NCBI GenBank assembly: GCA_902634185.1
Contig: CACPJC010000003.1
Location: 32,369-96,368, forward strand
DNA: 64,000 nucleotides
Source: an uncultured Candidatus Actinomarina sp.
Lineage (GTDB): Bacteria; Actinomycetota; Acidimicrobiia; Actinomarinales; Actinomarinaceae
Direction of reading: 5' to 3'
Shown here: piece after piece, positions 6,970 through 22,166 of the stretch
Layout of the letters: each line of letters begins with the position of its first letter
How positions within the stretch are numbered: position 1 is the stretch's first letter
Position numbers and translations under genes: made by a program
Notes under the pieces: model-generated
The model's input: the letters and a program-made list of their open reading frames with translations, nothing else
Database searches by the model: none
What the model was told of the DNA's origin: nothing

Positions 6970-7978
6970 AATTCCTCTCTCATATAAAAGAGCTGACTTT
7001 GCTAGTGACCAAGAGGTTAAATGGTGCCCTGGATGTGGTGATTATACAATTCTTGCTTCAGTGCAAAACTTTATGACTGAATTAGGTATCAGAAAAGAAA
7101 ATATTGTGTTTGTATCTGGCATTGGTTGTGCAGCAAGATTTCCTTACTACATGAACACATACGGTTTACATTCTATCCATGGTCGTGCTCCTGCAGTAGC
7201 TACTGGAGTAAGTGCATCTAACCCAGATCTTTCAGTTTGGGTAGTATCTGGAGATGGTGACGCACTATCTATTGGAGGAAACCACTTAATTCATGCACTA
7301 AGAAGAAATGTAAATATGAAGATTTTAATGTTCAATAATCAAATATATGGACTTACCAAAGGACAGTATTCCCCTACCAGTGAAGAAGGAAAGAAAACAA
7401 AATCTTCTCCCTTTGGTTCTGTAGAGCTTCCACTAAACCCAATGAGTTTAGCCTTAGGAGCTGAGGCATCATTTGTTGCAAGGTCAATTGATATGGATAG
7501 AGATCTTACAGCAGAGGTACTTCGAGCAGCATCTGAACATGAGGGCTCAGCTTATGTTGAGATTTATCAAAACTGTAACGTTTTTAATGACAAAGCCTTT
7601 GAGCAGTTAACTTCAAAGGAAGGAAAAATAGCAAATCGTATAAATCTAAAACATGGTGAGAAAGTTATCTTTGGAGCAGAAGATGAAAATGCTGTAACAA
7701 TTCGTGATGGAGAAGCGGTCATAGTCAAAAGATCTGAAATAGATGATAGTGAGATTTATGTTCATGACATTACAAAAGATAACCCTTCAATTGCTTTTTC
7801 ATTATCAAGATTATCTCATGGGCCTTATGGGCCAACGCCAGTAGGTATCTTTAGACAAGTTGAAAGAGATACTTACAATGATGAAGTCAGAGAACAAATT
7901 GACTCATCTATTGAGCAAAAAGGTGAAGGAGAACTTGATAAGCTTATTCGTTCTTTAGGAACTTGGGAAGTTAACTAA
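6962..7978 (+). CDS. korB: 2-oxoglutarate:ferredoxin oxidoreductase beta (TPP-binding) subunit
   Basis: 338 aa. CPGCGDY and GDGD...GGNH TPP motifs. Its start overlaps the korA stop. Confidence 0.93.
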   Translation: MSKIPLSYKRADFASDQEVKWCPGCGDYTILASVQNFMTELGIRKENIVFVSGIGCAARFPYYMNTYGLHSIHGRAPAVATGVSASNPDLSVWVVSGDGDALSIGGNHLIHALRRNVNMKILMFNNQIYGLTKGQYSPTSEEGKKTKSSPFGSVELPLNPMSLALGAEASFVARSIDMDRDLTAEVLRAASEHEGSAYVEIYQNCNVFNDKAFEQLTSKEGKIANRINLKHGEKVIFGAEDENAVTIRDGEAVIVKRSEIDDSEIYVHDITKDNPSIAFSLSRLSHGPYGPTPVGIFRQVERDTYNDEVREQIDSSIEQKGEGELDKLIRSLGTWEVN

Positions 7979-9365
7979 GGGCAGCGTTTAATCTTATCTC
8001 ATCTAAGAATATTTCATTAAACAATTTGCCGTTTTCATATCTTTTTTTTAACAAATTATTTTGAATTTCTTTATCTTCTGAAATAATCTTAATTTTTTGA
8101 TTCTTCATTATTGCAAAACGCCCTCCTCTAGAATTTTTTGATTTGTCTGTTATCGGTTTTTTGTAAACATCTCTCCACGCCACACCGTCATGTAATGCAG
8201 AAACTTTCATGGCAAATGAAAAAGTATCTCTATCGACTTTTTGCAACAATGAACCTCCCATACCGAAAGTAATGTTATTTGCTGAATACTTGTTCTTCTG
8301 CATTGATAAAAGAATTTCATTAATAACATCTTTGTCTACTCCATCACCTTGAATGACTCTTATGTAATCAGGTAGCTCTTTATACCCTTTATCATTCCAT
8401 AAAAATCCAAAGTTTTTTTCATTTGATAATATATCTAATAACTTAATAATCGTTTCAGGTAAATCTCCTGAGTCTGGCCTAACTACAAGCCTTCCACCAG
8501 AGTTAATAATTTTTGATTTGAGTTCATTAGAGATAATATTTGTTGCTGTATCAAAAGTATTGTATGAATCAATAACCGAAGCAGCAACTTTACCATCTTC
8601 TTTCAAGAAAATATCAATAACATTTTCATGAGCTTCTAATTCATTTTCTTCTCCCCAGGAAGTAATTGTTGAATGTTCCGAGGCAGGAATTGAGTAAGAT
8701 ATGTCTTCTCCCGAATAATAATCTCTTAAAAATATTGCTCCCTCAACAGTATCAGAGCCAAGAAAATTTATAAGGTGTGCTGCTCCTCCAATTTGTGATG
8801 ATTCTAAACTAGATACTCCTCTTGCGCCAAAATCATGAAGCTTAAATGGTAAATCTTCTTCATACTTAGTTGAAGTTATAGATAAATAATGATTTATTAT
8901 TTTTTTTATTTCTCTCGAAATTGTCGATACAGTAGTTGGATACCAAATAGACCTTAAAAGAGCTGTTTCAATATATGAAACAAGCCATGGAACTTTAATA
9001 TCAGTATTCACTATCTGAACTAGTGGAATAGGGTTATCAACTATACTTCCTTCATCAATTGATTGAATTTCTAGCGGAAGAAATCCATTATGCTGATTTA
9101 AAATGTACTCCCAGTCTTGACGATTAAATATCCCTATATGATCCATATAAAATTTTTCTGCTTCATTAATATCTTCCATGGTTATAGGATTTAACAGATA
9201 CTTCTTAATAAAGGCTTGGAGGCCAAAAAATACAAGTTCTTGATTATTTAAATCCCTTGCTTCAATATATGCTGATAATTTCTGAGTACTTTTTGGGTAT
9301 TGTTTAAAATGTGAAACTTTATAAGAATCTACATCAAGTATAAAATTATATTTTTTTGTGTTCAT
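7971..9365 (-). CDS. nadV: Nicotinamide phosphoribosyltransferase (NAMPT/NadV family)
   Basis: 464 aa. N-terminal VDSYKVSH motif and HDFGARG block. Its 3' end overlaps korB by 8 nt (convergent). Confidence 0.85.
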   Translation of the reverse strand: MNTKKYNFILDVDSYKVSHFKQYPKSTQKLSAYIEARDLNNQELVFFGLQAFIKKYLLNPITMEDINEAEKFYMDHIGIFNRQDWEYILNQHNGFLPLEIQSIDEGSIVDNPIPLVQIVNTDIKVPWLVSYIETALLRSIWYPTTVSTISREIKKIINHYLSITSTKYEEDLPFKLHDFGARGVSSLESSQIGGAAHLINFLGSDTVEGAIFLRDYYSGEDISYSIPASEHSTITSWGEENELEAHENVIDIFLKEDGKVAASVIDSYNTFDTATNIISNELKSKIINSGGRLVVRPDSGDLPETIIKLLDILSNEKNFGFLWNDKGYKELPDYIRVIQGDGVDKDVINEILLSMQKNKYSANNITFGMGGSLLQKVDRDTFSFAMKVSALHDGVAWRDVYKKPITDKSKNSRGGRFAIMKNQKIKIISEDKEIQNNLLKKRYENGKLFNEIFLDEIRLNAALS

Positions 9366-9437
9366 GCATAAGCTACTTTTTGATTTTTACCGTATGTTTA
9401 ATTATATTTTTTTAGAATAACAATATGGCATATACTA

Positions 9438-10097
9438 ATGGAATCTAATATTTATAAAATCCGGTATGCTTTGATTGCAGAATTTTTAGGTACATTTGTT
9501 TTAGTTTTTATTGGGTGTGGTTCTATTATCCTTTCAGAAATAATGGAATTCAATAAAATATTTATTCCTATATCTTTTGGAGGATCAATTGCATTTATGG
9601 TTTATATATTAGGTAAATATTCGGGGGCACATTTTAATCCAGGTGTAACAATAGGATTTTTGATTGATAAAAAAATTAAATTAACTGACGCTTTTTTATA
9701 TATTTCAATACAGTTGTTTGGAGCCTTAATTGCATCATACATTCACTTATTAATGTTTGGCTATAACAACTCATTGGGTTTAACTGTTAAAAATACTTCT
9801 GATTTAAATGCTTACTTGTTAGAAATCTTCTTTACATTCTTACTGATGACCGTAATATTTCTTGTTACAAAAAAACAAAACTATTATGATGGAATAGCAA
9901 TTGGTGGGATTGTTGCAATAAGTGCATTCTTGATTGGAGATCTTACTGGTGGTTCATTAAATCCAGCACGTAGTCTTGGACCAATGATTGTAAAAGGAAA
10001 TTTTTTAAGTTTAGATTTATATATACTTGGACCAATAGTTGGAGCATCCTTAGCTTCCCTTATTAAAAAATTTATTGAGCAACTAATCAAAAACTAA
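9438..10097 (+). CDS. MIP-family channel (aquaporin/aquaglyceroporin-like)
   Basis: 219 aa, 6 TM. First signature reads HFNPGVT (NPG instead of NPA). Second reads SLNPARSLGP. Confidence 0.85.
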   Translation: MESNIYKIRYALIAEFLGTFVLVFIGCGSIILSEIMEFNKIFIPISFGGSIAFMVYILGKYSGAHFNPGVTIGFLIDKKIKLTDAFLYISIQLFGALIASYIHLLMFGYNNSLGLTVKNTSDLNAYLLEIFFTFLLMTVIFLVTKKQNYYDGIAIGGIVAISAFLIGDLTGGSLNPARSLGPMIVKGNFLSLDLYILGPIVGASLASLIKKFIEQLIKN

Positions 10098-10099
10098 TA

Positions 10100-10894
10100 T
10101 TAGGTAGTTAATCTATCTTTGATTTCTTCCTTTTGAAAATTTTGATTTTTTAATATGATTCTTTTTACTTCTTCAGATTTTGTTGCCAGACAAACTACAT
10201 CTTCTTTAATTAAATCAATTTCATTGCCTTCTAAGTCACTTATTGTTCCTCCAATCTCTTTAAGGATTGGTTCATAAGGTAACCTATCATGAGGAAATGG
10301 TGCATAGAAAACTATTGCATCAAAATCTGAAAATCCAAGGGAAATGATATCTTTACAAAATTGTTGTTTAGTAATGTGGGTATGTAATTTAGAAAAATCA
10401 AAATTAGAAATTGATTTTTCAACATTTATATTTTTTTCTATCATTACTGAAATTTTCTTTGATGAAGAAATATCTAAAGTATGATCAAACGTCGCTCTAA
10501 TTAATTTATTTTTCATTACGGCAACATAGATATCTTGAATTGGACAGATTACAATTCCTGTGTCCAAAATAGTATTTTCGTATGAGGCAATTAAAGTCCC
10601 CCATTCTGGCCTTCTCTGAGAAAAAGCGGTTGTTCCATCAATTGGGTCTATAATCCAAACTCTTGAACTATTTCCTTTTGTAAAACCCAACTCTTCACCA
10701 AATATTGAGTCCTCTGGAAAATAATTGCTTAAAATTTCTCTTATATTCTTTTCAACTAATATATCTACATCTGTAACAATAGAACCATCATCTTTAATGC
10801 GAATATTATATGGTTTGTAAAAGCCATTGAGTGAGGTTTCATTTACCTTTTTTACTAATTCATCAACAAAATTATCAAATTTAAAACTGTACAT
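10100..10894 (-). CDS. Inositol monophosphatase family phosphatase (SuhB/HisN/CysQ-like)
   Basis: 264 aa. GEE metal site FGEELG and WIIDPIDGTTAF motif. Confidence 0.8.
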   Translation of the reverse strand: MYSFKFDNFVDELVKKVNETSLNGFYKPYNIRIKDDGSIVTDVDILVEKNIREILSNYFPEDSIFGEELGFTKGNSSRVWIIDPIDGTTAFSQRRPEWGTLIASYENTILDTGIVICPIQDIYVAVMKNKLIRATFDHTLDISSSKKISVMIEKNINVEKSISNFDFSKLHTHITKQQFCKDIISLGFSDFDAIVFYAPFPHDRLPYEPILKEIGGTISDLEGNEIDLIKEDVVCLATKSEEVKRIILKNQNFQKEEIKDRLTT

Positions 10895-10954
10895 AAATTA
10901 ATTCTAAAGTCAAAACCAAGTGAAAAAGTAAAATAAAGAATGCAAAAAGTAAAT

Positions 10955-11836
10955 TTATCTTAAACTTAGTATAAATCCATCCCTAATTCCTAATGGTGAG
11001 ATCTTAATTCTTTCTAAACTTAAAATCTCCAAGATAACATAAATAACATATATTCCTGAATATAAAACTTCTGCTCTATATTTATTAATGTACCCCAGAT
11101 TAATTAATTCATCTAAAGACATCATTTCAATTTTGTTTAAAGAATGAATAATATTTTCACGATTTAATTCATAAAGATATTCTCTATCTAGATTATTTCC
11201 ATTTGTAAAAACCTGGTATAAATTTCTTGCAGAACCTCCACAAAAAATAACATTATTTTTAAAGTACGTACTTTCTAAATTGGCAAATTGTTTTTCTATA
11301 AATTTTTTTGTACTCTTTTTTTCATCTTCAAAGTAAGGAGGGCCTCCAATTATATTTCTAATATCTGACGTACCAAATTTAAAACTTTTCACATTGTAAG
11401 CATTATTATTTCTTACGGTAAATTCAGTACTTCCACCACCAATATCGATAACAAGTTTTTCAGAATCATCGATTAATCTGTGAACAGCTTTATACGAAAA
11501 GGTACCTTCTTGTTCAGGTGTTAAAATTTTGCCATAAAGATTCAATTCAGATTTTAAATCATTAAAGGCATTTAATCCATTTTCAGCTCTTCTAAAAGGA
11601 CTTGTACCTAATATATTCCACTCGATAGACTGGTTAAATTTCTTATTTAAAAGATCAAGAACAGCTTTTAACTCTCTTGATAATTTTGTTATCTTCTTTT
11701 CTCTTAACAATCCATGCTTTGTAATTTCACGTCCAAGCAAAGGCCATAATTTGTCAGAAAATATTAATTCCTCATTCTCATAAATAGCAAACCTTGCTGA
11801 GTTCCCACCAATATCAATTACTCCATCAATAATAAT
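10955..11836 (-). CDS. ppx: Exopolyphosphatase (Ppx/GppA family); start extended to an ATT codon
   Basis: ASKHA phosphate-1 motif DIGGNSARF lies upstream of the first TTG/ATG. Phosphate-2 motif is DIGGGSTEF. An in-frame TAA sits at 11839..11837. SD AAGGA precedes ATT-ATT-ATT (11836..11828). Confidence 0.8.
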   Translation of the reverse strand: MIIDGVIDIGGNSARFAIYENEELIFSDKLWPLLGREITKHGLLREKKITKLSRELKAVLDLLNKKFNQSIEWNILGTSPFRRAENGLNAFNDLKSELNLYGKILTPEQEGTFSYKAVHRLIDDSEKLVIDIGGGSTEFTVRNNNAYNVKSFKFGTSDIRNIIGGPPYFEDEKKSTKKFIEKQFANLESTYFKNNVIFCGGSARNLYQVFTNGNNLDREYLYELNRENIIHSLNKIEMMSLDELINLGYINKYRAEVLYSGIYVIYVILEILSLERIKISPLGIRDGFILSLR

Positions 11837-11844
11837 TTATCCTT

Positions 11845-12315
11845 TTAAATTTTAAATAGCTTTGCAGATTTTAATTTTCCTTTTTTTATTTTTATCCACC
11901 AATACCCAGCTTTTGGAACCTCAAAATTTTTAACTTCTTTTTTGCTTAATTTATTTTTATTTAAATATTTTGACAAATCGTACATTGTATCTCCATGAGT
12001 TGAAAGGATTACAGTTTTTATCTTCTGCTCAAGTGCAAACTTTAGGGAGGATTCAAACGAACCGTTTTCATTGAGTGAATCTAAAATGTTAATTGGTTGA
12101 GAAGAGTTTTGACTTAATACTCCTACTGTTTCAGTGCATCTAGTTTTAGGAGAAGAAAAAATTAATAATGGAGCAACATCTTTAAATTTTTGTCCAATTT
12201 TATTTGCTTGAAGATTTCCCTTAGCACTTAGCGGTCTTAGAGAATCGTCACCAAACCATCTTTCCCTTTTCCCGGCATGTGCGTGTCTTATAAATATTAT
12301 ATTTTCTAATTCCAT
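11845..12315 (-). CDS. Histidine phosphatase superfamily protein (SixA-like)
   Basis: 156 aa. The N-terminal IFIRHAHAG matches the RHG catalytic motif, and STHGD lies near the C-terminus. Confidence 0.75.
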   Translation of the reverse strand: MELENIIFIRHAHAGKRERWFGDDSLRPLSAKGNLQANKIGQKFKDVAPLLIFSSPKTRCTETVGVLSQNSSQPINILDSLNENGSFESSLKFALEQKIKTVILSTHGDTMYDLSKYLNKNKLSKKEVKNFEVPKAGYWWIKIKKGKLKSAKLFKI

Positions 12316-12316
12316 A

Positions 12317-14293
12317 TTATTTGTTTAACTTCTCTTGGATATTGTAGTTTCCATCTAATTTTTTCCATGTTCCATCATTTTTTAACGTCCATGAATACTT
12401 GTCAGACTTTATATATTTTTCTAAGAGACTACTGAGTTTCTTTTTTATTATCGGGCTTTTTATAGGTACTAATACTTCAATTCTATGTCTTAAGTTTCTT
12501 TGCATTAAATCTGCAGACCCTATATATATTTTTTCTATATCTGATTTTCCAAATTTATATATTCTTGAGTGTTCTAAAAAAGGACCAAGTATAGAAATAA
12601 CATTTATATTTTTAATTGGTATGAGACAACAAATTCCCCTTACTATAATATTTATCTGATTACCTGCATTAGCCGCATCATATAATTTTTGTATGATTAA
12701 TGGATCAGTAAGATTATTCAATTTTAAAACAATTTTTCCTTCTTCTCCTAAATCTATTTGTTCTTCAATTAATGAGTTAATATTTTTCTCTAAAGACTCA
12801 GGGGCTACTAGCAACTCATCAAGATTTTCTCTATCAGCATAAGCAGTTAACGAATTAAAAACTATTCCACAATCATTACCAATACTTTTATCAGATGTGA
12901 AAATGCCAATATCCTCATATCCCTTTGATGTTAAAACATTGTAATTACCTGTTCCAAAGTGCATATATGGTACTAATTCATTATTTTCTTCACGAACAAC
13001 TAAAATCATTTTGGTATGAGCTTTATATCTTGGATCTCCATACGTAACATGAACACCTGATTCTTCTAAGTATTCAGCATTCGAGATGTTTTGCTCTTCA
13101 TCGAACCGTGCTCTCAATTCAACTAAAACAGCAACTTGTTTACCTCCTCTCGCTGCACTTGCTAATAGGGATGTTATCTTATCGTTTTCAGCAGTTAAAC
13201 CAGTTCTATATTGTGTCATTTTTATGGCACGTACATATGGATCAAAACATGCTTTTTCTAAAAATCGCAAAACTGTTTTCTCAAATGAATCATAAGGATG
13301 ATGTACCATCACATCATTATTTTTAATAATTTCAAACATATCATTGCTAAATTCAAATTCAGTCTCATGTAATTTCCAACTTGTAGAAAATTCGATATGG
13401 TCTATCAAAGAATTAATTTGAAATCTAGTAAGTGGGTCCTTTAATTCTACTTGAAGGTCATAATCTATTTCTAAATTATTTTTTAAGTATTTTTGAGTTG
13501 TTACTGAAACTCCCTCTTGGATTTCTAATCTTACAATTTTTCCTAATTTTCTATTTTCTAATCCCTCTTTTACAACTTCCAGAAAATTTCGCTTTAAACT
13601 TGCTCTAAATTCTAAATCTGCATCACGAGTTGTTCTAAACCAAAACTTTTCAATAACTGTGTGTGGAAAAAACAGTTTATCAATATAGTGAAGAACCAAT
13701 TCATGTATCCATACAAGTTGTTCCTTATTTAAATTTAAAAATGAACCTAAACTTGCTGGGATTTTTATACGTATAAATTGATTATCTTCAAATTCGTTTT
13801 TGATGACTACGCCGATAGACAATGATAAATCAGAAATGTATGGAAATGGATGTGTAGGGTCTGCAGCCAAGGGAGTAAGGAGGGGTTTTATATTGTTATC
13901 AAAATAATCTTCTAAGATATCAAGCTCAGATTCAGTGAGGTCTTTCATCCTCTTAAAATTTACACCATGCTTTTCTAGATCTTTTACAAAATATTCTTTC
14001 CAAACTGTGTTTCTATTTATCATCTCCTTTTTAGCTTCTTCAAGAATATCTTTAAAATATACAAATGTTTCTTTCGAAATTGAAACATCCAGCTTTTGAT
14101 TAATAGTCTCGTAAACTTTTTCAAGCAATCCAGAAATTCGAATCTGAAAAAACTCATCTAAATTAGAATGTGTTATACCGAATAAAAATAAACGATCCTT
14201 GAAAGGAACACTGCTATCTTTTGATAAAGTTAATACTCTTTTGTTGAACTCTAACCAGGATGATTCACGATCAAGAAGATCTATATCTGTCAT
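12317..14293 (-). CDS. ppk1: Polyphosphate kinase 1
   Basis: 658 aa. N-terminal RESSWLEFNKRVL motif typical of PPK1, plus two PLD-like C-terminal domains. Confidence 0.93.
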   Translation of the reverse strand: MTDIDLLDRESSWLEFNKRVLTLSKDSSVPFKDRLFLFGITHSNLDEFFQIRISGLLEKVYETINQKLDVSISKETFVYFKDILEEAKKEMINRNTVWKEYFVKDLEKHGVNFKRMKDLTESELDILEDYFDNNIKPLLTPLAADPTHPFPYISDLSLSIGVVIKNEFEDNQFIRIKIPASLGSFLNLNKEQLVWIHELVLHYIDKLFFPHTVIEKFWFRTTRDADLEFRASLKRNFLEVVKEGLENRKLGKIVRLEIQEGVSVTTQKYLKNNLEIDYDLQVELKDPLTRFQINSLIDHIEFSTSWKLHETEFEFSNDMFEIIKNNDVMVHHPYDSFEKTVLRFLEKACFDPYVRAIKMTQYRTGLTAENDKITSLLASAARGGKQVAVLVELRARFDEEQNISNAEYLEESGVHVTYGDPRYKAHTKMILVVREENNELVPYMHFGTGNYNVLTSKGYEDIGIFTSDKSIGNDCGIVFNSLTAYADRENLDELLVAPESLEKNINSLIEEQIDLGEEGKIVLKLNNLTDPLIIQKLYDAANAGNQINIIVRGICCLIPIKNINVISILGPFLEHSRIYKFGKSDIEKIYIGSADLMQRNLRHRIEVLVPIKSPIIKKKLSSLLEKYIKSDKYSWTLKNDGTWKKLDGNYNIQEKLNK

Positions 14294-14985
14294 ACATTTT
14301 GTTTAAATTTAATTGAAAAAGTAGTGCCCTCACCTAGCAAACTGTCTAGTTCAATTGTCCCGTTATTCCTATCAACTGCATGTTTTACTATTGAAAGACC
14401 GATTCCTGTTCCACCTAAGTTTCTAGACCTGCCTTTATCAATTCTATAGAATCGTTCAAAGATTCTTTCTTGATCTTGTTGAGAGATTCCCTTACCTTTA
14501 TCTATTACTTTGAATAAAACATCTTCATCATCCTTCTTCAAATGAACTTCAATAGGAGTGTCTGGGTCAGAATAAGTAACTGCGTTACGTAATATATTTC
14601 GAACGATTAATGCAAAATCTTCTTGGTCAACATTTATATGAATATTTTCAATGTTTGCATTAAGTCTGGCTTGATCGTTTTCTTTTAAGTATGAAATTTC
14701 CATATTTACTATATTTTCAAGATCAGCAATTTCTAAATTTGGTTCATTTTGCTCAATTTTAGATAAATCAAGTAAATCACTGATAAGGAGTGACATTCGT
14801 TCACTGTTTCTAAGAATTTGTTTAATAAACTTTAATCCATCCTCTGTATTTCCATCATTTATAGCATTTAATGCTGTCTCTGCTGCTAGTTGGATAGACG
14901 TTATCGGAGTTTTCAACTCATGAGATGCATTTGCAACAAAATCTTCTCTTATTTTTTCAATATTTTGTTCTTGATTTTCATTCAT
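14290..14985 (-). CDS. senX3: Histidine kinase, DHp+CA core only (SenX3/PhoR-like, no TM or PAS)
   Basis: 231 aa. H-box NASHELKTP begins at residue ~19. N, G1 (DKGKGI) and G2 (GGTGIGLS) boxes present. Overlaps regX3 by 8 nt. Confidence 0.85.
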   Translation of the reverse strand: MNENQEQNIEKIREDFVANASHELKTPITSIQLAAETALNAINDGNTEDGLKFIKQILRNSERMSLLISDLLDLSKIEQNEPNLEIADLENIVNMEISYLKENDQARLNANIENIHINVDQEDFALIVRNILRNAVTYSDPDTPIEVHLKKDDEDVLFKVIDKGKGISQQDQERIFERFYRIDKGRSRNLGGTGIGLSIVKHAVDRNNGTIELDSLLGEGTTFSIKFKQNV

Positions 14986-15670
14986 CTTCTACAAGTTTAT
15001 ATCCTACTCCTCTAACAGTTATTAATTTTTTAGGATCTTTTGGATTTTTCTCAATTTTTTCGCGAATTCTTTGTATATGTACATCAAGTGTTTTTGAATT
15101 ACCTATAAACGTATATCCCCATATTTCATCAAATATTTGTTCTCTAGACATTAAATTACCTTTATTCTCACAGAGAGCATAAAGAAGTTCAAATTCTCGA
15201 GGTCTCAAATTAATTTGTTTATCATTAACTTTTGCTTCATATTTACCAATGTCTATCTCAATATTTCCAACTTTTATTGCCTGTGATGATTTTTCATTCT
15301 TAGACATATCTGTCCTTCGTAGCACTGCCCTGACTCTGCTTAATAATTCTCTTACAGAAAATGGCTTTATAACATAATCGTCAGCACCGATTTCAAGTCC
15401 AGCAACTCTATCAGCTTCACTATCTTTAGCAGTAACCATAATTATTGGTATATCTGATGTTTTACGAATCGATCTACATATATCTAAACCAGAAATTTCT
15501 GGAAGCATCAAATCAAGAATAATTAAACTAAACTCTTCTTCCTGGAATAGCTCTAACGCAATAGGTCCTTCATCAACATGAGTTACAGAAAAACCCTCTT
15601 GTTTTAAGTTGTATGATATTGAGTCAGCAATACTATGCTCATCCTCTACTAAAAGGACTTTTTGCTTCAT
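14978..15670 (-). CDS. regX3: OmpR/PhoB-family response regulator
   Basis: 230 aa. Receiver domain (LVEDE...ILDLMLP...KP) plus winged helix (TVRGVGYKL). Confidence 0.92.
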   Translation of the reverse strand: MKQKVLLVEDEHSIADSISYNLKQEGFSVTHVDEGPIALELFQEEEFSLIILDLMLPEISGLDICRSIRKTSDIPIIMVTAKDSEADRVAGLEIGADDYVIKPFSVRELLSRVRAVLRRTDMSKNEKSSQAIKVGNIEIDIGKYEAKVNDKQINLRPREFELLYALCENKGNLMSREQIFDEIWGYTFIGNSKTLDVHIQRIREKIEKNPKDPKKLITVRGVGYKLVEDE

Positions 15671-16311
15671 TAAAATTCTTTAAACTCTCCGGTAACCAAA
15701 AAGTGTGTGAGCTCACAAATATCAACTGCATGATCTCCACCCCTTTCTAGTGTTCGCATACAGGTAACAAGTCTAAATAATCCATTATACAAATCTTCAT
15801 TGCCAGCAATTTTTGGGGCTTCTTCTAGCATTGAGTTGTATAATCTATTTACTTGACTATCTTTTTCTGACGTTACTAGAGCTAAGTCTTTATCTCTGGT
15901 TTTTAAGCTTTCCATAGCTGATGATGCCATGTCAATTACTATATCTCCCATTTCAACAACTGTTGCATGGATAGACTCTGGTACAGGTGAATCAAAAATC
16001 TCTTTCGTCGTTTTTCCAAGATAGACAGCTAAATCACCAAGACGCTCTAAATGTAAACTGGCTTGTAAAATAGATGTAGAAAGTCTTAAGTCAGTGGCAA
16101 CAAGTTGCTCAGTGGCCATAAGTTCAATCCAGTCCTCATCAATCTTTAGGTAAGATTTATCAATTTCATCATCTTTTTCTATTGTTTCTATAGCTCTATT
16201 GACATCTTTATCCTCTAAAGCTCTTACGCCATCTACTAAAGAATCTAGTACAAGTCTTGCCATTAAATGTAAATCTGTCTCAAGATTGTCAATCTTGTCT
16301 TGTAAACTCAT
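15670..16311 (-). CDS. phoU: Phosphate signalling protein PhoU
   Basis: 213 aa two-repeat PhoU fold with ERLGDLA and ERGGDHA motifs. Confidence 0.92.
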
Positions 16312-17123
16312 CCAAACCTTCCAGATATATATTGTTCAGTTAATTCCTCATCAGGATTTGTAAACATGGTATTCGTTTCATTGAACTCAACTAATTCTCC
16401 AGTTCTTCTTTTGCCATCATCGGAGGTTTTAGTTGTAAAAAATGCACAATAATCAGAGGCTCTTGAGGCTTGCTGCATATTGTGCGTAACAATAAGAATT
16501 GAAAACTCTTTCACTAACTCTTGCATAAGGTCTTCTATTTTTTTTGTTGCTACAGGGTCTAATGCAGAGCAAGGCTCGTCCATTAAAATTGTATCTGGCT
16601 CAACTGCAATTGTTCTAGCAATACACAATCTTTGTTGCTGACCACCTGATAGCTCTAATGCATTTTTGTTTAAATCATCTTTTACTTCATCCCATAACGC
16701 TGCTTGAGTTAATGCCCTCTCTACTCTTTCATCCATATTGTCAGTCATGTTGTTGACTTTAAGCCCAAAGGTAATATTTTCTTTGATAGTTTTTGGGAAA
16801 GGATTTGGTTTTTGAAAAACCATTCCGATTCTTCTTCTCACTTGCACTGGATCAACCATTTTGTCGTATAAATCAACACCTTGATAATTTATTGTTCCAT
16901 TAACTTTTGCACCCAATATAAGATCATTCATTCTATTAAATGTTCTTATCAAAGTACTCTTTCCACAACCAGATGGGCCAATAAAAGCTGTAATTTTATT
17001 TTTAGAGATATCCATATTTACATTTTTGATAGCTACGAATTCTCCGTAGCTTACGGAGACATCTTTTACATTGAATACATTTTCATTGTTTACTTGAACT
17101 GTTTCTTTAGTTTCCATTCTCAT
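16308..17123 (-). CDS. pstB: Phosphate ABC transporter ATPase
   Basis: Walker [10 protein letters not shown], signature LSGGQQQR, Walker B ILMDEP. Confidence 0.96.
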
Positions 17124-17141
17124 TCTCCTTTATGATTTTCA

Positions 17142-18089
17142 CTAAAAATCTTTCTCATATCTGTTTCTTATAAATATTGCTATTGAATTCATTAATAATA
17201 ATAAACCTAGAAGTAAAATGATTCCAGCGGAAGCTGTCTCCTTCCACTCAGCTTGAGGATAACCAACCCAGTTATAAACTTGAATTGGAATAGCGGTAAA
17301 CCCACTTAAAGGAGTGTCTGGAAAATAATTAACATAAGTCAATGCACCCATAAAAATTAATGGTGCGGTCTCTCCAATTGCTCTTGAGAGCCCAAGGACC
17401 ATTCCAGTAACCATTCCTGGTATTGCAGAGGGAACAACCTGCCTAAAAACTGCTTGAAATTTAGTGGAACCTAGCGCCAATGCACCCTGGCGTATTGTAT
17501 CTGGAACAGCTTTAAGAGCCTCCCTAGATGCTACGATTACAACTGGAAGAATTAATAACGTTAATGTTAAACCTCCTGAAAGTACTGACCTTCCAAATCC
17601 AGCTAAACGAACAAAAACAGCTAATCCTAGTAAACCATAAATAACTGATGGAACTCCAGCCAAGTTTGTTAGATTTAATTCAATAAATCTTGTAAGCCTA
17701 TTTTTTGGAGCAAATTCTTGAAGATATATTGCTGCTCCTGCACCAAAAGGAAATGTTGCAGAAATAACTATTATCATTAACCATAATGTTCCAGCAAAAG
17801 CAGGTCCAATACCAGCTCTATCTGGATATCTTGAGTCTAAAGTTGTTAAAAAATCTCTCGGGTTATCAATTTGTATTTTTGTAATGAGGCCAACCTCGTA
17901 GTCTGATGTCAATCTTGTAGTCCCAGTAGAAAGAACATCATAGATTAAGGTCATCAAAGTTAAAATAGCAATCGTTACACAAATATAAAGAGTGAACAGA
18001 AACAAACTCTCCTTTATTGCATTTTCAGCTTTCTTGCCGGTTATAATTGTTTCGTTACTCATATTCTTTTCTGTACTTTCTAGCGACAT
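17142..18089 (-). CDS. pstA: Phosphate ABC transporter permease PstA
   Basis: 315 aa. EAA-type loop RQGALALGSTKFQ. The start may be an internal Met. Confidence 0.9.
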   Translation of the reverse strand: MSLESTEKNMSNETIITGKKAENAIKESLFLFTLYICVTIAILTLMTLIYDVLSTGTTRLTSDYEVGLITKIQIDNPRDFLTTLDSRYPDRAGIGPAFAGTLWLMIIVISATFPFGAGAAIYLQEFAPKNRLTRFIELNLTNLAGVPSVIYGLLGLAVFVRLAGFGRSVLSGGLTLTLLILPVVIVASREALKAVPDTIRQGALALGSTKFQAVFRQVVPSAIPGMVTGMVLGLSRAIGETAPLIFMGALTYVNYFPDTPLSGFTAIPIQVYNWVGYPQAEWKETASAGIILLLGLLLLMNSIAIFIRNRYEKDF

Positions 18090-18972
18090 AATCAGAAGCT
18101 ATATTCAAAATAAAAGTCATAATAAATAAAGTTATTCCAAGTGCGAATAAAGCATTATAAGCAGTGGTGCCATGAGGTGTATCACCAAGGGATACGTTTA
18201 CTATTGAGGAAGTGATCGTATACATTGCACTCCTAGGATCTAAATTTAATTCAGGATACTGCCCACCTGCAATAGTCACAATCATTGTTTCACCTATGGC
18301 TCTTGAAAAACCTAATATAAATGAAGCAATAATTCCAGATATTGCTGCAGGGAACATAATTTTAAGTGCTGTGATCCTCCTGGTAGAGCCAAGAGCTAAG
18401 GATCCATTCCTTAGAGAGTTTGGTACTGCATTAAGGGCATCATCAGAGATTGATGCAATTGTAGGTATTATCATTATTCCTACTGCAATACCTGCGGACA
18501 GAGCATTGAATACACCGGTACCTGGAATAAATCTTTGAATTATATTTGGCGTAATCCAGTTAAGTGCAAAATAACCAAATACCACTGTAGGAACTCCAGC
18601 CAAAACTTCTAAAACTGGTTTGATAACTTTTCTTGTTCTTTTTGTGGCAAACTCAGATAGGTAAATTGCAGAAAACAAACCTAATGGAAAAGAAATAAGA
18701 CACGCAATAACCGCAATATAAAGAGTTGAAGAGATTAAAACAATAACACCGTACTCAGGATTTTGAAACGTAGGTGTCCACCTAGTTGCAGTAAAATAGC
18801 CCTTTAAAGTTACAGCTGGATCTTGAAAAAAGTTAATGGCTTCAGTTAGTAAGGTAAAAACAATTGAAATTGATATTAGTATTGCTGCAAAAGCAGAGAC
18901 AGTTATAAAAAATTTTACTACTTTTTCAAAAGGTTTTATTGAGGTTTGAGATAATTCAGATAGTAGACTCAT
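18055..18972 (-). CDS. pstC: Phosphate ABC transporter permease PstC
   Basis: 305 aa. Contains RNGSLALGSTRRI and SRAIGETM motifs. Confidence 0.9.
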   Translation of the reverse strand: MSLLSELSQTSIKPFEKVVKFFITVSAFAAILISISIVFTLLTEAINFFQDPAVTLKGYFTATRWTPTFQNPEYGVIVLISSTLYIAVIACLISFPLGLFSAIYLSEFATKRTRKVIKPVLEVLAGVPTVVFGYFALNWITPNIIQRFIPGTGVFNALSAGIAVGIMIIPTIASISDDALNAVPNSLRNGSLALGSTRRITALKIMFPAAISGIIASFILGFSRAIGETMIVTIAGGQYPELNLDPRSAMYTITSSIVNVSLGDTPHGTTAYNALFALGITLFIMTFILNIASDYVARKYRKEYE

Positions 18973-19015
18973 ATTTTGCTTTTTATTCTTTCTTTAACTT
19001 CTTCTTTAATTGTAG

Positions 19016-19044
19016 TTTGTGAGGGCCAATTAGGCCCTCACAAA
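19016..19044 (-). terminator. Perfect 12-bp hairpin between pstS and pstC (intra-operon attenuator candidate)
   Basis: tttgtgagggcc (19016..19027), loop aatta, ggccctcacaaa (19033..19044). GC-rich core in an AT-rich genome. Confidence 0.55.
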
Positions 19045-19065
19045 TTTACAAATAATTGAGGAGTT

Positions 19066-20922
19066 TTATCCTCGACTGAATGCGGACCAGCCCATCAATG
19101 ATGCCATCTTTTGTTCTGGAAGCATTGGAACATATCCCACTGCTGGGACAATTGCATCCATTGCTACGAAATAAAAGTCAACAAATTGACGAACTTGAGA
19201 CATTCCTTTTGCAGCTTCAGCTACATAAATGAATAGCGGACGTGCTAGGAAGTAATTTCCTTCAAAAGCTGCTTCTGGTGGTTGACAACCATCACCTGCA
19301 TCAACTTCAACAGCAGTTAGTTTATCTTTGTTCTCTTCATAATATGCGAGTCCAAAGTATCCTAATCCACCAGCTGATCCTGCGACACCGTTTACGAGAA
19401 CGTTGTCATCTTCAGATGCTGTATAGTCTGATCGACTTCCACCTGCGTCTTCTGTAAGCTCTTCATTGAAGAAGTCAAATGTACCTGAGTCTGTACCTGG
19501 ACCATATAGGTCTAGTGCAACATCAGGGAAACCTGCTCTAACATCTTTCCAGTTTGTTATTGTGCTATCTGCACCCCAGATTGATGTTAATTCAGCAGTT
19601 GTTAAACATGTTGCCCAGTCATTTGATGTTGGAACAACAACAGAAAGTGCATCGATACCTACTTGAATTTCAAGGTATCCAACACCATTTTCTTCACAAA
19701 GTGCTTTTTCTTTATCTTTAATTGGACGTGACGCGTCTGAAATCATTGTCTCACCTGGACAGAATTTCTTGAATCCTCCACCAGTTCCTGAAACACCGAC
19801 TGATATAGCTACATCTGAATGAATAGCTGTAAACTCTTCAGCAACGGCTTGTGTTACAGGGAACACTGTCGATGAACCATCAATAAGAATTTCTCCACTG
19901 AGGGTTGAATCGCCAGATATAACCTGCCAGTATTCTAATTGTCTATCAGCTGCATCTGGCAACATTGGTATGTAGCCAACAGCTTCAACAATTGGATCAA
20001 GTGAGTCAAAGTAAAAGTCAACGAAAGCTTTGATTACAGGATCTTTTGCTTTAGCATCATTTACATATATAAATAATGGTCTTGCTAATCCATAAGTTCC
20101 TGAGAAAGCTCCTTCAGGACCTATACATCCTTTTCCTGCATCAACTTCAACAGCAGTTAGTTTATCTTTGTTCTCTTCATAATATGCGAGTCCAAAGTAT
20201 CCTAATCCACCAGCTGATCCAGAGACACCGTTTACGAGAACGTTGTCATCTTCAGATGCTGTATAGTCTGATCGACTTCCACCCAAATCTTCAGTTATTT
20301 CTTCATTGAAGAAGTCAAATGTACCTGAGTCTGTACCTGGACCATATAGGTCTAGTGCAACATCAGGGAAACCTGCTCTAACATCTTTCCAGTTTGTTAT
20401 TGTGCTATCTGCACCCCAGATTTTTCCTAATTCTTCAACTGTTAAACATGTTGCCCAGTCATTTGATGTTGGAACAACAACAGAAAGTGCATCTACACCG
20501 ACTTGTAGTTCAGTGAACTCTGTGCCACCTTCATAACAGAGATTTCTTTCTTTATCTTTGATTGGTCTTGAAGCATCAGATATATCTGTTTCTCCAGGAC
20601 AAAATTTCTTGAATCCTCCACCGGTTCCTGACACACCTACAGATATTTCTACACCTGGGTTAACTGCAGTAAATTCTTCTGCTACAGCTTGTGTAATAGG
20701 GAAAACAGTTGAAGATCCGTCGATAAGTATTGATCCAGTTAAGCCTGCATCACTACTACCACTATCAGAAGCTACAGTTGTTTGACTACTGGCTGTTTCC
20801 TCCGATGTTGTTGGTTCTTCACTTTCTTCTGAAGAGGTATCATCATCTCCACCACCACAGGCAGCAAGAACGAGAACCATCACAAGAAGTAAAGACCAAA
20901 ACTTAGATCTTGATCTAATCAT
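19066..20922 (-). CDS. pstS: Lipoprotein made of two tandem PstS phosphate-binding domains
   Basis: 618 aa. Lipobox LAAC. The block [11 protein letters not shown](I/V)TQAVAEEF...[29 protein letters not shown]... occurs twice, 280 aa apart. Confidence 0.92.
19298..19655 (-). repeat. Near-identical intragenic DNA tract, copy in PstS domain 2
   Basis: Aligns with 20138..20495 at an offset of exactly 840 nt, with only short mismatched patches. Confidence 0.85.
20138..20495 (-). repeat. Near-identical intragenic DNA tract, copy in PstS domain 1
   Basis: Partner of 19298..19655. Confidence 0.85.
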
Positions 20923-20974
20923 GGATTTCCTTTCTTTAATTTAATTAAATTAACAATGGTAAGAGTATTTTGTA

Positions 20975-20996
20975 AAAGTAAACGCAAAGTAAACGT
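20975..20996 (-). promoter_or_regulatory. PHO-box-like 11-bp phased direct repeat upstream of pstS
   Basis: On the pstS strand it reads ACGTTTACTTT-GCGTTTACTTT, ending ~50 nt before the ATG. Confidence 0.45.
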
Positions 20997-21018
20997 TAAG
21001 CTTAAATATGTTTAAGTT

Positions 21019-21849
21019 TCAAATTAACTCAGTAGGTGAAAACCAATTTCCTCTATTAAATGCTAGGATATAACTTTCGTATCCAAGAAAGTCTTTTTGA
21101 TATTCTTCAGGGATATTGAATCCCCACCAATCTGTTTTAAATTGTGATCGATGAGCCTTCATAGAATTGATTTTATTTTCAATATACTTTGTTCCATCTA
21201 TTTCGACATCAATATCCTCATTATCACTTCCGATAGGATTAAATGCATTAAACTCATCTTCAGTTAATATTCCAGCCTCATACATTTGAGTTCGTCTTGC
21301 TTGAATTCTCGATTTTGACCACGCATTAAAATAAAGTCTTTCTGGAATCCATATGTCTTCTTCATCTTTTAATGGAAACTTATCTATATCACCAGCTGCA
21401 AAAAACGCAGCTGTTCCAACTCTATGTGTTTGAATATGATCAGGATGCCCATATCCCCCAAATGGATCATAGGTTATTAAAACATCAGGTTTATATTTTC
21501 TTATTTCTGTCACAAGCTTGCCCACAGGTCCAAAATAGTCTTGTCTCCAAAAACAATCAGGATCATTGTTCTCCTCTGTGCCCATCATTCCAGAGTCTTT
21601 ATATCCAAGCCATTCATATTCTTTTACACCTAGAGCATCTAAACTTTTTTCAAGTTCCTCTTTTCGCATTTCAGCCAATTTTGGAAATAACTCTTCTGGG
21701 TTTTCATAGTTATGAATTTCTCCAGCTGAACCATCAGTTGCTGTAACAACAACAACTCGATGACCTTCATCTGCATATTTAGCTAAGGTAACACCTGTTG
21801 ATACGCTTTCATCGTCAGGATGTGCGTGAAAAGCAAGAATTGTTGCCAT
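21019..21849 (-). CDS. PIG-L/LmbE-family deacetylase (MshB/Mca-like)
   Basis: 276 aa. AHPDDES metal motif and HPDH. Its ATG overlaps the atpC stop (TAATG). Confidence 0.8.
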   Translation of the reverse strand: MATILAFHAHPDDESVSTGVTLAKYADEGHRVVVVTATDGSAGEIHNYENPEELFPKLAEMRKEELEKSLDALGVKEYEWLGYKDSGMMGTEENNDPDCFWRQDYFGPVGKLVTEIRKYKPDVLITYDPFGGYGHPDHIQTHRVGTAAFFAAGDIDKFPLKDEEDIWIPERLYFNAWSKSRIQARRTQMYEAGILTEDEFNAFNPIGSDNEDIDVEIDGTKYIENKINSMKAHRSQFKTDWWGFNIPEEYQKDFLGYESYILAFNRGNWFSPTELI

Positions 21850-22166
21850 TATTCGTCTGAGGTAAATGTCTTCTTTGCTAACTCTTGCCCGAGTTCGATG
21901 GCTTTATCATGATCACCGTCAATTTTTTCAACTAACTCACCAAGAACAATTACTTTTTCACCAGTAATTTGAAGTATTCCGCCAGAAATTGCAAAAGATG
22001 TTCTCTGATTATCATGCTCTATGGTTAACCCACCTGGAACTAATGTAGCTACGGTTGGTTCATGGCCTTCTAATATACCAATCTCTCCGTTTGGAGTTCT
22101 TGATATGACCATTGTTGCATCCCCTGTAAAGCAACTCTCCTCAGGAGAAACGACCTCTACATACAT
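21849..22166 (-). CDS. atpC: F1 ATP synthase epsilon subunit
   Basis: 105 aa, in the operon position after atpD. Short form, beta-sandwich with only a short C-terminal tail. Confidence 0.85.
   Translation of the reverse strand: MYVEVVSPEESCFTGDATMVISRTPNGEIGILEGHEPTVATLVPGGLTIEHDNQRTSFAISGGILQITGEKVIVLGELVEKIDGDHDKAIELGQELAKKTFTSDE

Follow-up and report, generated by a model that had tools for sequence, protein, structure and literature searches.

Organization of the phosphate locus

The window, a stretch of 64,000 nucleotides (nt) from an uncultured Candidatus Actinomarina sp. (contig CACPJC010000003.1 of assembly GCA_902634185.1, positions 32,369 to 96,368), carries a run of ten genes for phosphate uptake, signalling and polyphosphate (polyP) metabolism between positions 10955 and 20922, where every long open reading frame (ORF) lies on the minus strand. 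Read in the direction of transcription, the order is pstS, a hairpin, pstC, pstA, pstB, phoU, a gene for a RegX3-like response regulator, a histidine kinase gene, ppk1, a histidine phosphatase gene and ppx. A first-pass annotation had read this run as one super-operon; its placement of all ten genes on the minus strand was borne out, their identities were confirmed by matches to Pfam and NCBIfam profiles with curated cut-offs, and its junction coordinates were all correct. PstS, PstC, PstA, PstB, PhoU and PPK1 pass the curated NCBIfam cut-offs. The transporter comprises, besides the binding protein, the permeases PstC (18055..18972, 305 amino acids (aa); TIGR02138, 254.2 versus a cut-off of 196.45) and PstA (17142..18089, 315 aa; TIGR00974, 256.2 versus 193.45) and the ATPase PstB (16308..17123, 271 aa; TIGR00972, 371.5 versus 343.2), followed by PhoU (15670..16311, 213 aa; TIGR02135, 140.3 versus 130.25).

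The genes pstC and pstA overlap by 35 nt (18055/18089), and further junctions lie at 16308/16311 (pstB/phoU), 15670 (phoU/response regulator), 14978/14985 (response regulator/kinase), 14290/14293 (kinase/ppk1, a 4-nt overlap of the ATGA type), 12315/12317 (ppk1/histidine phosphatase) and 11845/11836 (histidine phosphatase/ppx). From pstC to ppx the largest gap is 18 nt and, besides the pstC/pstA overlap, start and stop overlap by 1-8 nt at four of the seven junctions. Long spacers around the block are few, with 96 nt before pstS, 93 nt after pstS and 60 nt after ppx, and it is these that delimit units here. A consensus scan for terminator-like sites inside the pstC to ppx stretch found none; a promoter consensus scan gave 51 matches against 62.5 expected from shuffles and is uninformative in DNA this rich in AT.

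The overlapping or 1-20 nt junctions had been taken in the first-pass annotation as a sign of physical fusion into one unit, an argument that does not rise above the background of the genome. The coding share of the window is about 97%; same-strand gaps have a median of 1 nt (3 nt outside the block), with 34 of 45 at or below 20 nt; and between about 10.1 and 53.3 kb, a co-directional run of 43 kb, a simple greedy caller picked minus-strand ORFs exclusively. Published Actinomarinales genomes likewise have 97% coding density and median spacers of 2-3 bp (PMC7771536). Because tight gaps are the norm, short or overlapping junctions in the block say little about a special fusion; they reflect genome-wide streamlining.

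The host of the window is Candidatus Actinomarina: the window is 99.2% identical across the region to a contig of the Candidatus Actinomarina single amplified genome (SAG) AG-920-J05 (locus L001 of the loci fetched for comparison), and PPK1 used as a query returned Candidatus Actinomarina single-cell genomes. GC content runs from 27 to 41% along the window, about 33% overall; together with the match to the SAGs, this rules out a Mycobacterium-like origin.

Alternative phosphate cassettes at a fixed site

Relatives of the locus were fetched with the flanking LmbE/Mca-like gene (21019-21849). In close relatives, the fixed site between ATP synthase/LmbE and POR beta holds five alternative phosphate cassettes. 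Version 1 (L165-L168) consists of a Na/Pi cotransporter gene and a PhoU-like gene, and version 2 (L164) of genes for a response regulator, a 231-aa histidine kinase, a Na/Pi cotransporter and PhoU. Version 3 (L171) has a single pstS encoding 336 aa, pstCAB, phoU, the response regulator gene and a 228-aa kinase, at which the cassette ends. In version 4 (L002, and L162, which is cut inside pstS) a double pstS, pstCAB, phoU and the regulator and kinase genes are followed by an IMPase-family gene, ppk1, the histidine phosphatase gene, ppx and a NAMPT gene. Version 5 (the window and L001; L003 is cut at phoU) is as version 4, with the IMPase gene placed after ppx and a MIP channel gene added. In the comparison with related genomes that the first-pass annotation had proposed, gene order is kept between clades and at least five cassettes alternate at the site.

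The real unit in the window extends beyond the coordinates first given, covering about 7971-21018 (13 kb) and including the IMPase, MIP and NAMPT genes. The MIP/GlpF-like channel gene (9438..10097, plus strand; Pfam MIP, 154 bits) belongs to version 5 only and is absent at the site in L002, L162, L164-168 and L171. A weak box-like site lies upstream of it (9385-9401, 2 mismatches), of a kind that occurs as frequently as expected by chance. The gene for a NAMPT-type phosphoribosyltransferase (7971..9365, minus strand; Pfam NAMPT_N and NAPRTase) is limited to the versions that bear ppk1, being found also in L002 and L162; L164-168 and L171 lack it and have POR-beta immediately after the cassette.

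The ATP-synthase beta, gamma and epsilon proteins of L169 are 100% identical to those of the window, yet the start of a Na/Pi-type gene like that of L164 stands right after LmbE, and versions must therefore differ at the level of strains. In L164 the flanks are 94-99% identical to the window, with the response regulator at 64% and the kinase at 48%, a pattern that speaks for a replaced cassette and not for a mere deletion.

Compared with L002, the proteins of the window form two tiers of identity. PstC, PstA and PstB are 95-96% identical, PstS and PhoU 88-89% and the response regulator 81% (a group spanning 80-96%); the kinase is 56% identical, PPK1 58%, the histidine phosphatase 63%, PPX 46% and the IMPase-family protein 49%. 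Flanking genes are mostly 70-98% identical, one being 50%. GC at third codon positions (GC3) is uniform across the region, at 0.17-0.25, so that the two tiers represent a difference of rate or of alleles and not a compositional island; recent horizontal acquisition of the polyP half has no compositional support. Because one version (L171) ends at the kinase, the comparison of versions shows the polyP genes to be an add-on module on a core of pst, phoU and two-component system. The clustering of the genes exceeds chance, as it is kept in a clade in which the polyP genes share only 46-63% identity. Together these data indicate that in Candidatus Actinomarina the locus is probably the largest form of a phosphate-acquisition island that is flexible and replaceable and sits at a fixed site between ATP synthase/LmbE and POR.

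A doubled PstS and a conserved stem-loop

The pstS gene (19066..20922) encodes a lipoprotein of 618 aa with two tandem PstS domains, matched by TIGR02136 in two stretches (514.7 bits versus a cut-off of 206.6). It is a tandem in-frame duplication in which two complete binding domains stand behind one lipoprotein signal peptide; the internal repeat has a period of 840 nt and 87% nucleotide identity, and the halves share 78% of their amino acids. PstS of L002 is likewise double, with each half 91-93% identical to its counterpart in the window versus 77-79% to its neighbour half. As the halves are orthologous between the window and L002, the duplication is old and both halves have been maintained. 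We considered whether the double gene is an assembly artefact and rejected this, since the 618-619 aa form is read through in both the window and L002; it is also countered by L001, with 99.2% identity across the region, and by the orthology of the halves.

Within the 93-nt spacer between pstS and pstC, a stem-loop (19016..19044, minus strand) has a perfect stem of 12 bp and no T tract after it. Its predicted folding energy is -29.4 kcal/mol (z = -7.1), and none of 200 shuffles folds as well; the hairpin placed after pstS by the first-pass annotation is therefore real. The structure is kept in L002 and L171, both with the same stem and a different loop. Such a conserved hairpin implies at least differential transcript levels on its two sides.

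PHO-box-like repeats and the response regulator

In the 96-nt region upstream of pstS, the PHO-box-like repeat reported in the first-pass annotation was also found to be real: two 11-nt direct repeat units, GTTTACTTTGC and GTTTACTTTTA, occupy 20973-20994 (minus strand), and the candidate regulator target written through is GTTTACTTTGCGTTTAC. Its layout is that of a PHO box as defined for Pho genes, a pair of direct repeat units of 11 nt in the upstream region (PMC4415409). The exact pattern GTTTAC-N5-GTTTAC occurs once in the 64-kb window, at this box; a search of 168 fetched loci, together well above 1 Mb, found it only in L001, L002 and L164, all of them Actinomarina loci with a gene for the regulator. 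The window and L002 have the same 35-nt pstS leader. In L171 the box reads ATTTACTTAAC GTTTAC, with the same 11-nt period, and in L164 it (GTTTACTTTAAGTTTACTTTTCAAAA; GTTTACTTTAAGTTTAC) lies at 12227-12243 of that locus, in front of the Na/Pi gene and in the strand opposite to it. No box was found upstream of the Na/Pi gene in L165, L166 and L168, the versions read that lack a regulator. The motif co-occurs with the regulator gene, which makes the PHO box a candidate target of the regulator.

The regulator itself (14978..15670, 230 aa) is of the OmpR family and closest to RegX3. Its best match among solved structures is M. tuberculosis RegX3 (2oqr; 240.5 bits, E = 1.3e-70, residues 3-226), followed by MtrA with 200 bits; as a curated RegX3 model does not exist, the assignment is a best-match argument.

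A second PHO-box-like element, TTTACTTTTT twice, 21 nt apart (10925..10953, minus strand), precedes the gene for an IMPase-family phosphatase (10100..10894, minus strand; Pfam Inositol_P, 96.7 bits), a protein that scores below the cut-offs of the HisN and CysQ models. In this module TTTACTTTT and TTTAC stand 21 nt apart, at equal distance to the ATG in both clades, and of the five TTTACTTT copies in intergenic DNA of the window, four precede pstS or the IMPase-family gene. The gene and its two repeat units are shared by L002 (9088-9146) and L162, where they are found between the kinase gene and ppk1; in L002 the spacers on either side are 72 and 77 nt. The IMPase-family gene is a mobile member of the island with a separate PHO-box-like module.

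A histidine kinase without a sensor domain

The kinase gene (14290..14985) encodes 231 aa made up of DHp and CA domains only (HisKA, 13-79; HATPase_c, 120-229). The maximum hydropathy over 19 aa is 0.69, which leaves it without a transmembrane segment; a PAS region is likewise absent, and upstream extension of the ORF is impossible. SenX3, for comparison, is about 410 aa long. The short form is not peculiar to the window: kinases of 228-231 aa, 48-56% identical, occur in four island versions (the window; L002, 8385-9074; L164, 11535-12230; L171, 6825-7511). Among the best 150 representatives in a library of 1.84 billion proteins, comparably short kinases were an Actinomarina-type protein of 229 aa, 56% identical to the query, and, of the query's own type, a fragment of 157 aa; all others were at least 333 aa. 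The kinase scores below the cut-offs of the NCBIfam equivalogs PnpS (240.1 versus 400) and phoR_proteo (211.3 versus 334.2), because the alignment is confined to the C-terminal catalytic core (positions 164-389 of the first profile and 107-333 of the second). The names senX3 and regX3, used in the first-pass annotation, accordingly suit the two genes unequally: the regulator is indeed closest to RegX3, but the kinase has neither membrane anchor nor PAS region, and the regulator gene precedes the kinase gene on the minus strand, the reverse of the senX3-regX3 order.

For PhoR of E. coli, the input is presumed to come through the PAS region (PMC4415409). PhoU accompanies the kinase in every version of the island that has one, and the most economical guess is that PhoU acts directly on the catalytic core of the kinase.

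PPK1 and a probable ATT start of ppx

PPK1, an enzyme that works via a phospho-His intermediate, is encoded at 12317..14293 (658 aa; TIGR03705, 612.1 versus a cut-off of 465.85), and all four PPK domains of Pfam (PP_kinase_N, PP_kinase, C_1 and C) are present. The ppx gene (10955..11836) encodes a short phosphatase of the Ppx/GppA family (Pfam Ppx-GppA, 104.4 bits versus a cut-off of 27). Against TIGR03706, 'exo_poly_only', the protein scores 147.9 bits versus a cut-off of 307, below the level at which this model assigns a protein to PPX rather than GppA.

No ATG, GTG or TTG occurs in the ppx frame ahead of 11740, and the frame is open from 11836, where three ATT codons follow one another (11836, 11833 and 11830). 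The extension encodes the conserved phosphate-binding motif DIGGNSAR (11815-11792), and the extended protein, 293 aa from the ATT, aligns with positions 3-297 of the 300 of TIGR03706. A non-canonical ATT start is required for ppx because there is no canonical start ahead of this motif. In L002 (12423) and L162, an in-frame ATT 6 nt after AGGA is kept and the extension carries synonymous changes; the simplest reading is a conserved ATT start.

Two other readings of this end of the block were rejected. That ppx is an N-terminally truncated pseudogene starting from TTG 11740 is contradicted by the 32 upstream codons, which are open and encode DIGGNSAR, and by the retention of the extension, with synonymous changes, in a clade where PPX is 46% identical. 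Nor are the histidine phosphatase and ppx genes of the window one fused gene interrupted by a frameshift, as they lie in different reading frames and each has its own stop.

The histidine phosphatase between ppk1 and ppx

The gene between ppk1 and ppx (11845..12315) encodes a stand-alone histidine phosphatase of 156 aa with a SixA fold (Pfam His_Phos_1, without a Nudix domain). The first-pass annotation had called it SixA-like, a label that holds for structure: the protein has about 155 aa, the histidine-phosphatase fold, a catalytic RH(G/A) motif and a second His. The protein does not qualify as a SixA equivalog, scoring 26.5 bits against TIGR00249 (cut-off 74.5), and E. coli SixA is absent among its PDB sequence matches at E <= 1; the MutT1 C-terminal domain is nearer in both sequence and fold. 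The best NCBIfam match is the MutT1 model NF052459, at 47.8 bits versus a cut-off of 475 and over positions 133-283 only, and the best PDB sequence matches (3fjy, 5gg5 and 9cxx) are MutT1 of Bifidobacterium, M. smegmatis and M. tuberculosis. In a Foldseek search with an AF2 model (pLDDT 89), the C-terminal domain of M. smegmatis MutT1 gave a TMq of about 0.8, Rv2985 0.75 and SixA of A. tumefaciens (Agrobacterium) 0.70. Residues R10, H11, R27, R59 and H107 are invariant in the family alignment, and the motif is RHA, as in Bifidobacterium MutT1. A word-indexed search with the protein returned only 5 relatives. Sequence and structure model both identify this protein as a MutT1 C-terminal domain without its Nudix partner.

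What is known of MutT1 offers two kinds of substrate. In vitro work reported in 2025 showed the C-terminal domain of MutT1 dephosphorylating SenX3~P and lowering the level of RegX3~P (PMC12407098), so that action on a phospho-SenX3-type kinase has a direct mycobacterial precedent. Rv2985 is described as a diadenosine polyphosphatase, and MutT1 structures have been solved with 8-oxo-(d)GTP, 8-oxo-dGDP or ATP.

The first-pass annotation had also supposed the corresponding mycobacterial loci to be dispersed. This is not so for ppk1 and mutT1: M. tuberculosis ppk1 is Rv2984 (PMC4899718) and mutT1 is Rv2985 (PDB 9cxx), consecutive locus tags and already neighbours. A wide sample of ppk1 surroundings was available in 80 loci from a scan of metagenomes with PPK1, in which the matches listed have 35-41% identity and include no Actinomarina relatives. 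A homologue of the domain was found near ppk1 in eight of them; six are Nudix+His_Phos genes adjoining ppk1 (L082, L085, L087, L120, L149 and L157), and in the other two one ORF, immediately behind ppk1, combines His_Phos_1 with Ppx-GppA (L080, 7219-8604; L088, 12053-13495). In a further protein (P0036), a Nudix domain is fused to the C-terminus of PPK1. The genomic signal therefore links the domain with polyP enzymes and not with kinases, and PPK1~P is at least as good a candidate substrate as kinase~P.

Other features of the window

A search of 9000-22000 against Rfam found no known RNAs, and no tRNA was found near the phosphate island. Elsewhere in the window, a minus-strand ORF of 3003 aa (37921-46932) has a C-terminal sortase domain and weaker matches, over the whole protein, to BNR/Asp-box and other repeat families, of which no single stretch passes alone; its sequence suggests a giant surface protein that carries its own sortase as a fusion.

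Comparison with known phosphate systems

The closest parallel is found in another phylum. In HIMB59, flexible phosphate islands at one genomic position range from pstSCAB-phoU alone to versions of 18.5 kb; the largest contain PhoR-PhoB, alkaline phosphatase, ppk, an adjacent phosphohistidine phosphatase (SixA) and exopolyphosphatase, and GlpF, and the distribution of the islands correlates with phosphate concentration (PMC10734472). The two cases share a streamlined marine host, a fixed position, graded versions and the same inventory of pst, phoU, two-component system, ppk, phosphatase, ppx and GlpF. They differ in that the parts in Actinomarina are actinobacterial (a RegX3-like regulator and a phosphatase like the MutT1 C-terminal domain), that no alkaline phosphatase gene was seen in the Actinomarina island, that its simplest versions are a Na/Pi cotransporter plus a PhoU-like gene and not pst, and that its PstS is duplicated and its kinase has no sensor domain.

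With the mycobacterial SenX3-RegX3, Pst, PPK1 and MutT1 proteins, the island has in common a regulator closest to RegX3, the logic of Pho-type control and ppk1 beside a MutT1-type phosphatase domain. In contrast to Mycobacterium, the regulator gene comes before the kinase gene, the kinase is without transmembrane and PAS regions, the phosphatase is without Nudix, and all genes are contiguous rather than spread over several loci.

Related clusters also occur in Acidimicrobiia and on high-GC contigs. The cultured Acidimicrobiia bacterium EGI L10123 has pstS-C-A-B-phoU and the response regulator gene contiguous, followed by tatA, tatA, tatC, a HAD gene on the opposite strand and then ppk1, 2.25 kb downstream; a 404-aa kinase is encoded elsewhere. 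On contig L085 (70% GC), pstSCAB-phoU, the regulator gene, ppk1, a CYTH/CHAD gene, a Nudix+His_Phos gene and ppx follow one another on one strand. L082 and L087 have the same order as far as tblastn matches and the Nudix+His_Phos ORF reach (ppx was seen in L085 and L087), and in L084 and L125 ppk1 is followed by pstSCAB-phoU and two-component genes. Actinomarina lacks a counterpart of the CYTH+CHAD protein that L085 encodes (7375-9000) between ppk1 and its gene of MutT1 type. These clusters of Acidimicrobiia and high-GC soil contigs differ from the island in their single PstS, a full-length kinase (about 400 aa) encoded elsewhere, a MutT1 that bears its Nudix domain, a long PPX with domain III, the extra CHAD protein and the lack of IMPase and MIP genes. 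A further set of 76 genome loci from outside Actinomarina, mostly metagenome-assembled genomes of Eremiobacterota/Vulcanimicrobiota, had ppk1 without pst, phoU, ppx or the histidine phosphatase gene and was uninformative.

In E. coli, as in the Actinomarina island, a stem-loop follows pstS. The two also share a ppx that comes after ppk and a PHO box of two 11-nt units (PMC4415409); in E. coli, however, phoBR, pst-phoU and ppk-ppx are three loci, PhoR has transmembrane and PAS regions, and no histidine phosphatase lies between ppk and ppx.

Discussion

We propose the following working of the island in the window. Under phosphate scarcity, the RegX3-like regulator would bind the two 11-nt repeats upstream of pstS and turn on transcription, and the conserved stem-loop after pstS would let pstS mRNA accumulate over that of the distal genes. 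Read-through would supply pstCAB, phoU and the regulator and kinase genes, with the two-component system autoregulated, and would most likely run on into ppk1, the histidine phosphatase gene and ppx, there being no spacer or terminator between; the IMPase-family gene would have its own PHO-box-like promoter module. The histidine phosphatase most likely strips phospho-His from the kinase, from PPK1 or from both, which would reset signalling and polyP synthesis, and the ATT start would hold PPX translation low relative to PPK1.

Several observations weigh against this picture and against the island as we describe it. We infer co-transcription across the kinase/ppk1 junction only from the absence of spacers and terminator-like sites; in a genome of 30% GC promoters may lie inside coding sequence, and the spacers of 72 and 77 nt in L002 may give the polyP genes there a promoter of their own. 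The box of L164 is inverted relative to the Na/Pi gene, which hints at another regulatory sign, possibly repression. L164 and L171 carry the kinase without the histidine phosphatase, so the two-component system can do without the latter. The island is also probably of low prevalence, because the study of Actinomarinales genomes reported no identifiable two-component systems (PMC7771536).

How the block is transcribed can be read in more than one way. The claim that it is a unique and obligate super-operon, ten genes expressed from one promoter with the SixA-like enzyme as a novel centrepiece acting on phospho-PPK1 and phospho-SenX3, draws on the gaps of at most 18 nt from pstC to ppx, the four overlaps of 1-8 nt, a single PHO box upstream of ten genes and the precedent of the MutT1 C-terminal domain acting on SenX3~P (PMC12407098). 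Part of it stands, in that the block is contiguous and co-directional with no terminator-like site between pstC and ppx; it is modular and not indivisible, however, as L171 ends at the kinase and L002 has the boxed IMPase gene ahead of ppk1. Tight junctions are the genome norm, the hairpin after pstS speaks for unequal transcript levels, and the supposed uniqueness of the arrangement is largely undone by the Acidimicrobiia genome, the high-GC contigs and the HIMB59 islands (PMC10734472); we regard the full claim as unlikely. The block might instead form two or three units, namely pstS, pstCAB-phoU with the regulator and kinase genes, and ppk1 to ppx from a promoter in the 3' end of the kinase gene, with contiguity as a by-product of compaction. 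The polyP module is separable in evolution (L171, L002) and evolves at a different rate, ppk1 of EGI L10123 is split from pst-phoU and the regulator gene by tat genes and an opposite-strand gene, and AT-rich coding sequence is rich in -10-like hexamers. Yet the ATGA-type overlap of the kinase gene and ppk1 is typical of translational coupling, no second PHO box was found upstream of ppk1 in the window, and pstSCAB-phoU, the regulator gene and ppk1 are directly contiguous in the high-GC contigs L082, L085 and L087, which leaves separate units possible but doubtful. That the adjacency has no functional meaning at all, being chance packing in a 1.1-Mb genome, might be suggested by 97% coding density and the 43-kb co-directional run around the block. 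This is contradicted already by the comparative data, since clades whose polyP genes share 46-63% identity keep the order, Acidimicrobiia and high-GC contigs have related orders, domain fusions link the components and the same inventory was assembled independently in HIMB59 (PMC10734472), and we hold it to be extremely improbable.

The substrate of the histidine phosphatase can likewise be read in more than one way. The enzyme may be a small-molecule phosphatase, acting on nucleotides or polyP-linked metabolites, in the manner of the activities on nucleotides that MutT1 was first credited with, and working with PPK1 and PPX, a reading to which we give serious weight, if short of even chances. 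The low score against SixA (26.5 versus 74.5), the nucleotide-bound MutT1 structures, the diadenosine polyphosphatase activity ascribed to Rv2985, the fusion of the domain to PPX and Nudix enzymes and not to kinases, and its absence from island versions that have a two-component system only all favour it. On the other side, PPK1 itself uses a phospho-His intermediate, the Nudix partner that would handle nucleotides is missing here, and the biochemical precedent for the RHG motif of this domain is removal of kinase phospho-His (PMC12407098). A broader and more speculative proposal, which we rate as rather improbable, is that a phosphatase of the MutT1 C-terminal or SixA type is the dedicated third partner of the PPK1-PPX polyP cycle across phyla, for example by resetting the phospho-His of PPK1; in Actinomarina, where the kinase of the one two-component system seen here is devoid of sensor domains, this enzyme, perhaps with PhoU, might give the bare kinase core an 'off' input in place of PAS-mediated sensing. 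This proposal builds on the adjacency to ppk1 from Mycobacterium to Actinomarina, the His_Phos-PPX ORFs, the Nudix-His_Phos genes and the PPK1-Nudix fusion.

Returning to the island as a whole, our search of the literature found no paper linking Actinomarina to one of this kind. The study of Actinomarinales genomes described one flexible island only that is kept throughout the order (PMC7771536); the locus described here would be a second variable island, phosphate-related and fixed in its site. It also brings a two-component system to an order in which that study could identify none. Four details appear new: the doubled PstS, the sensor-less kinase, a Nudix-less MutT1 domain, which fusions elsewhere link to polyP enzymes, and the ATT-initiated ppx; the IMPase-family gene with a PHO box of its own is a further new detail. 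The kinase of about 230 aa, the doubled PstS and the ATT-started ppx are compact oddities of a minimal Pho system. The comparative data also link the MutT1/SixA-type phosphatase to polyP enzymes by adjacency and by fusion, a link unmentioned in the 2025 work on mycobacterial MutT1 and sensor kinases. For the organism itself, the island would serve, in parallel to HIMB59, as a genetic marker of phosphate-niche partitioning in cells that are among the smallest free-living ones.

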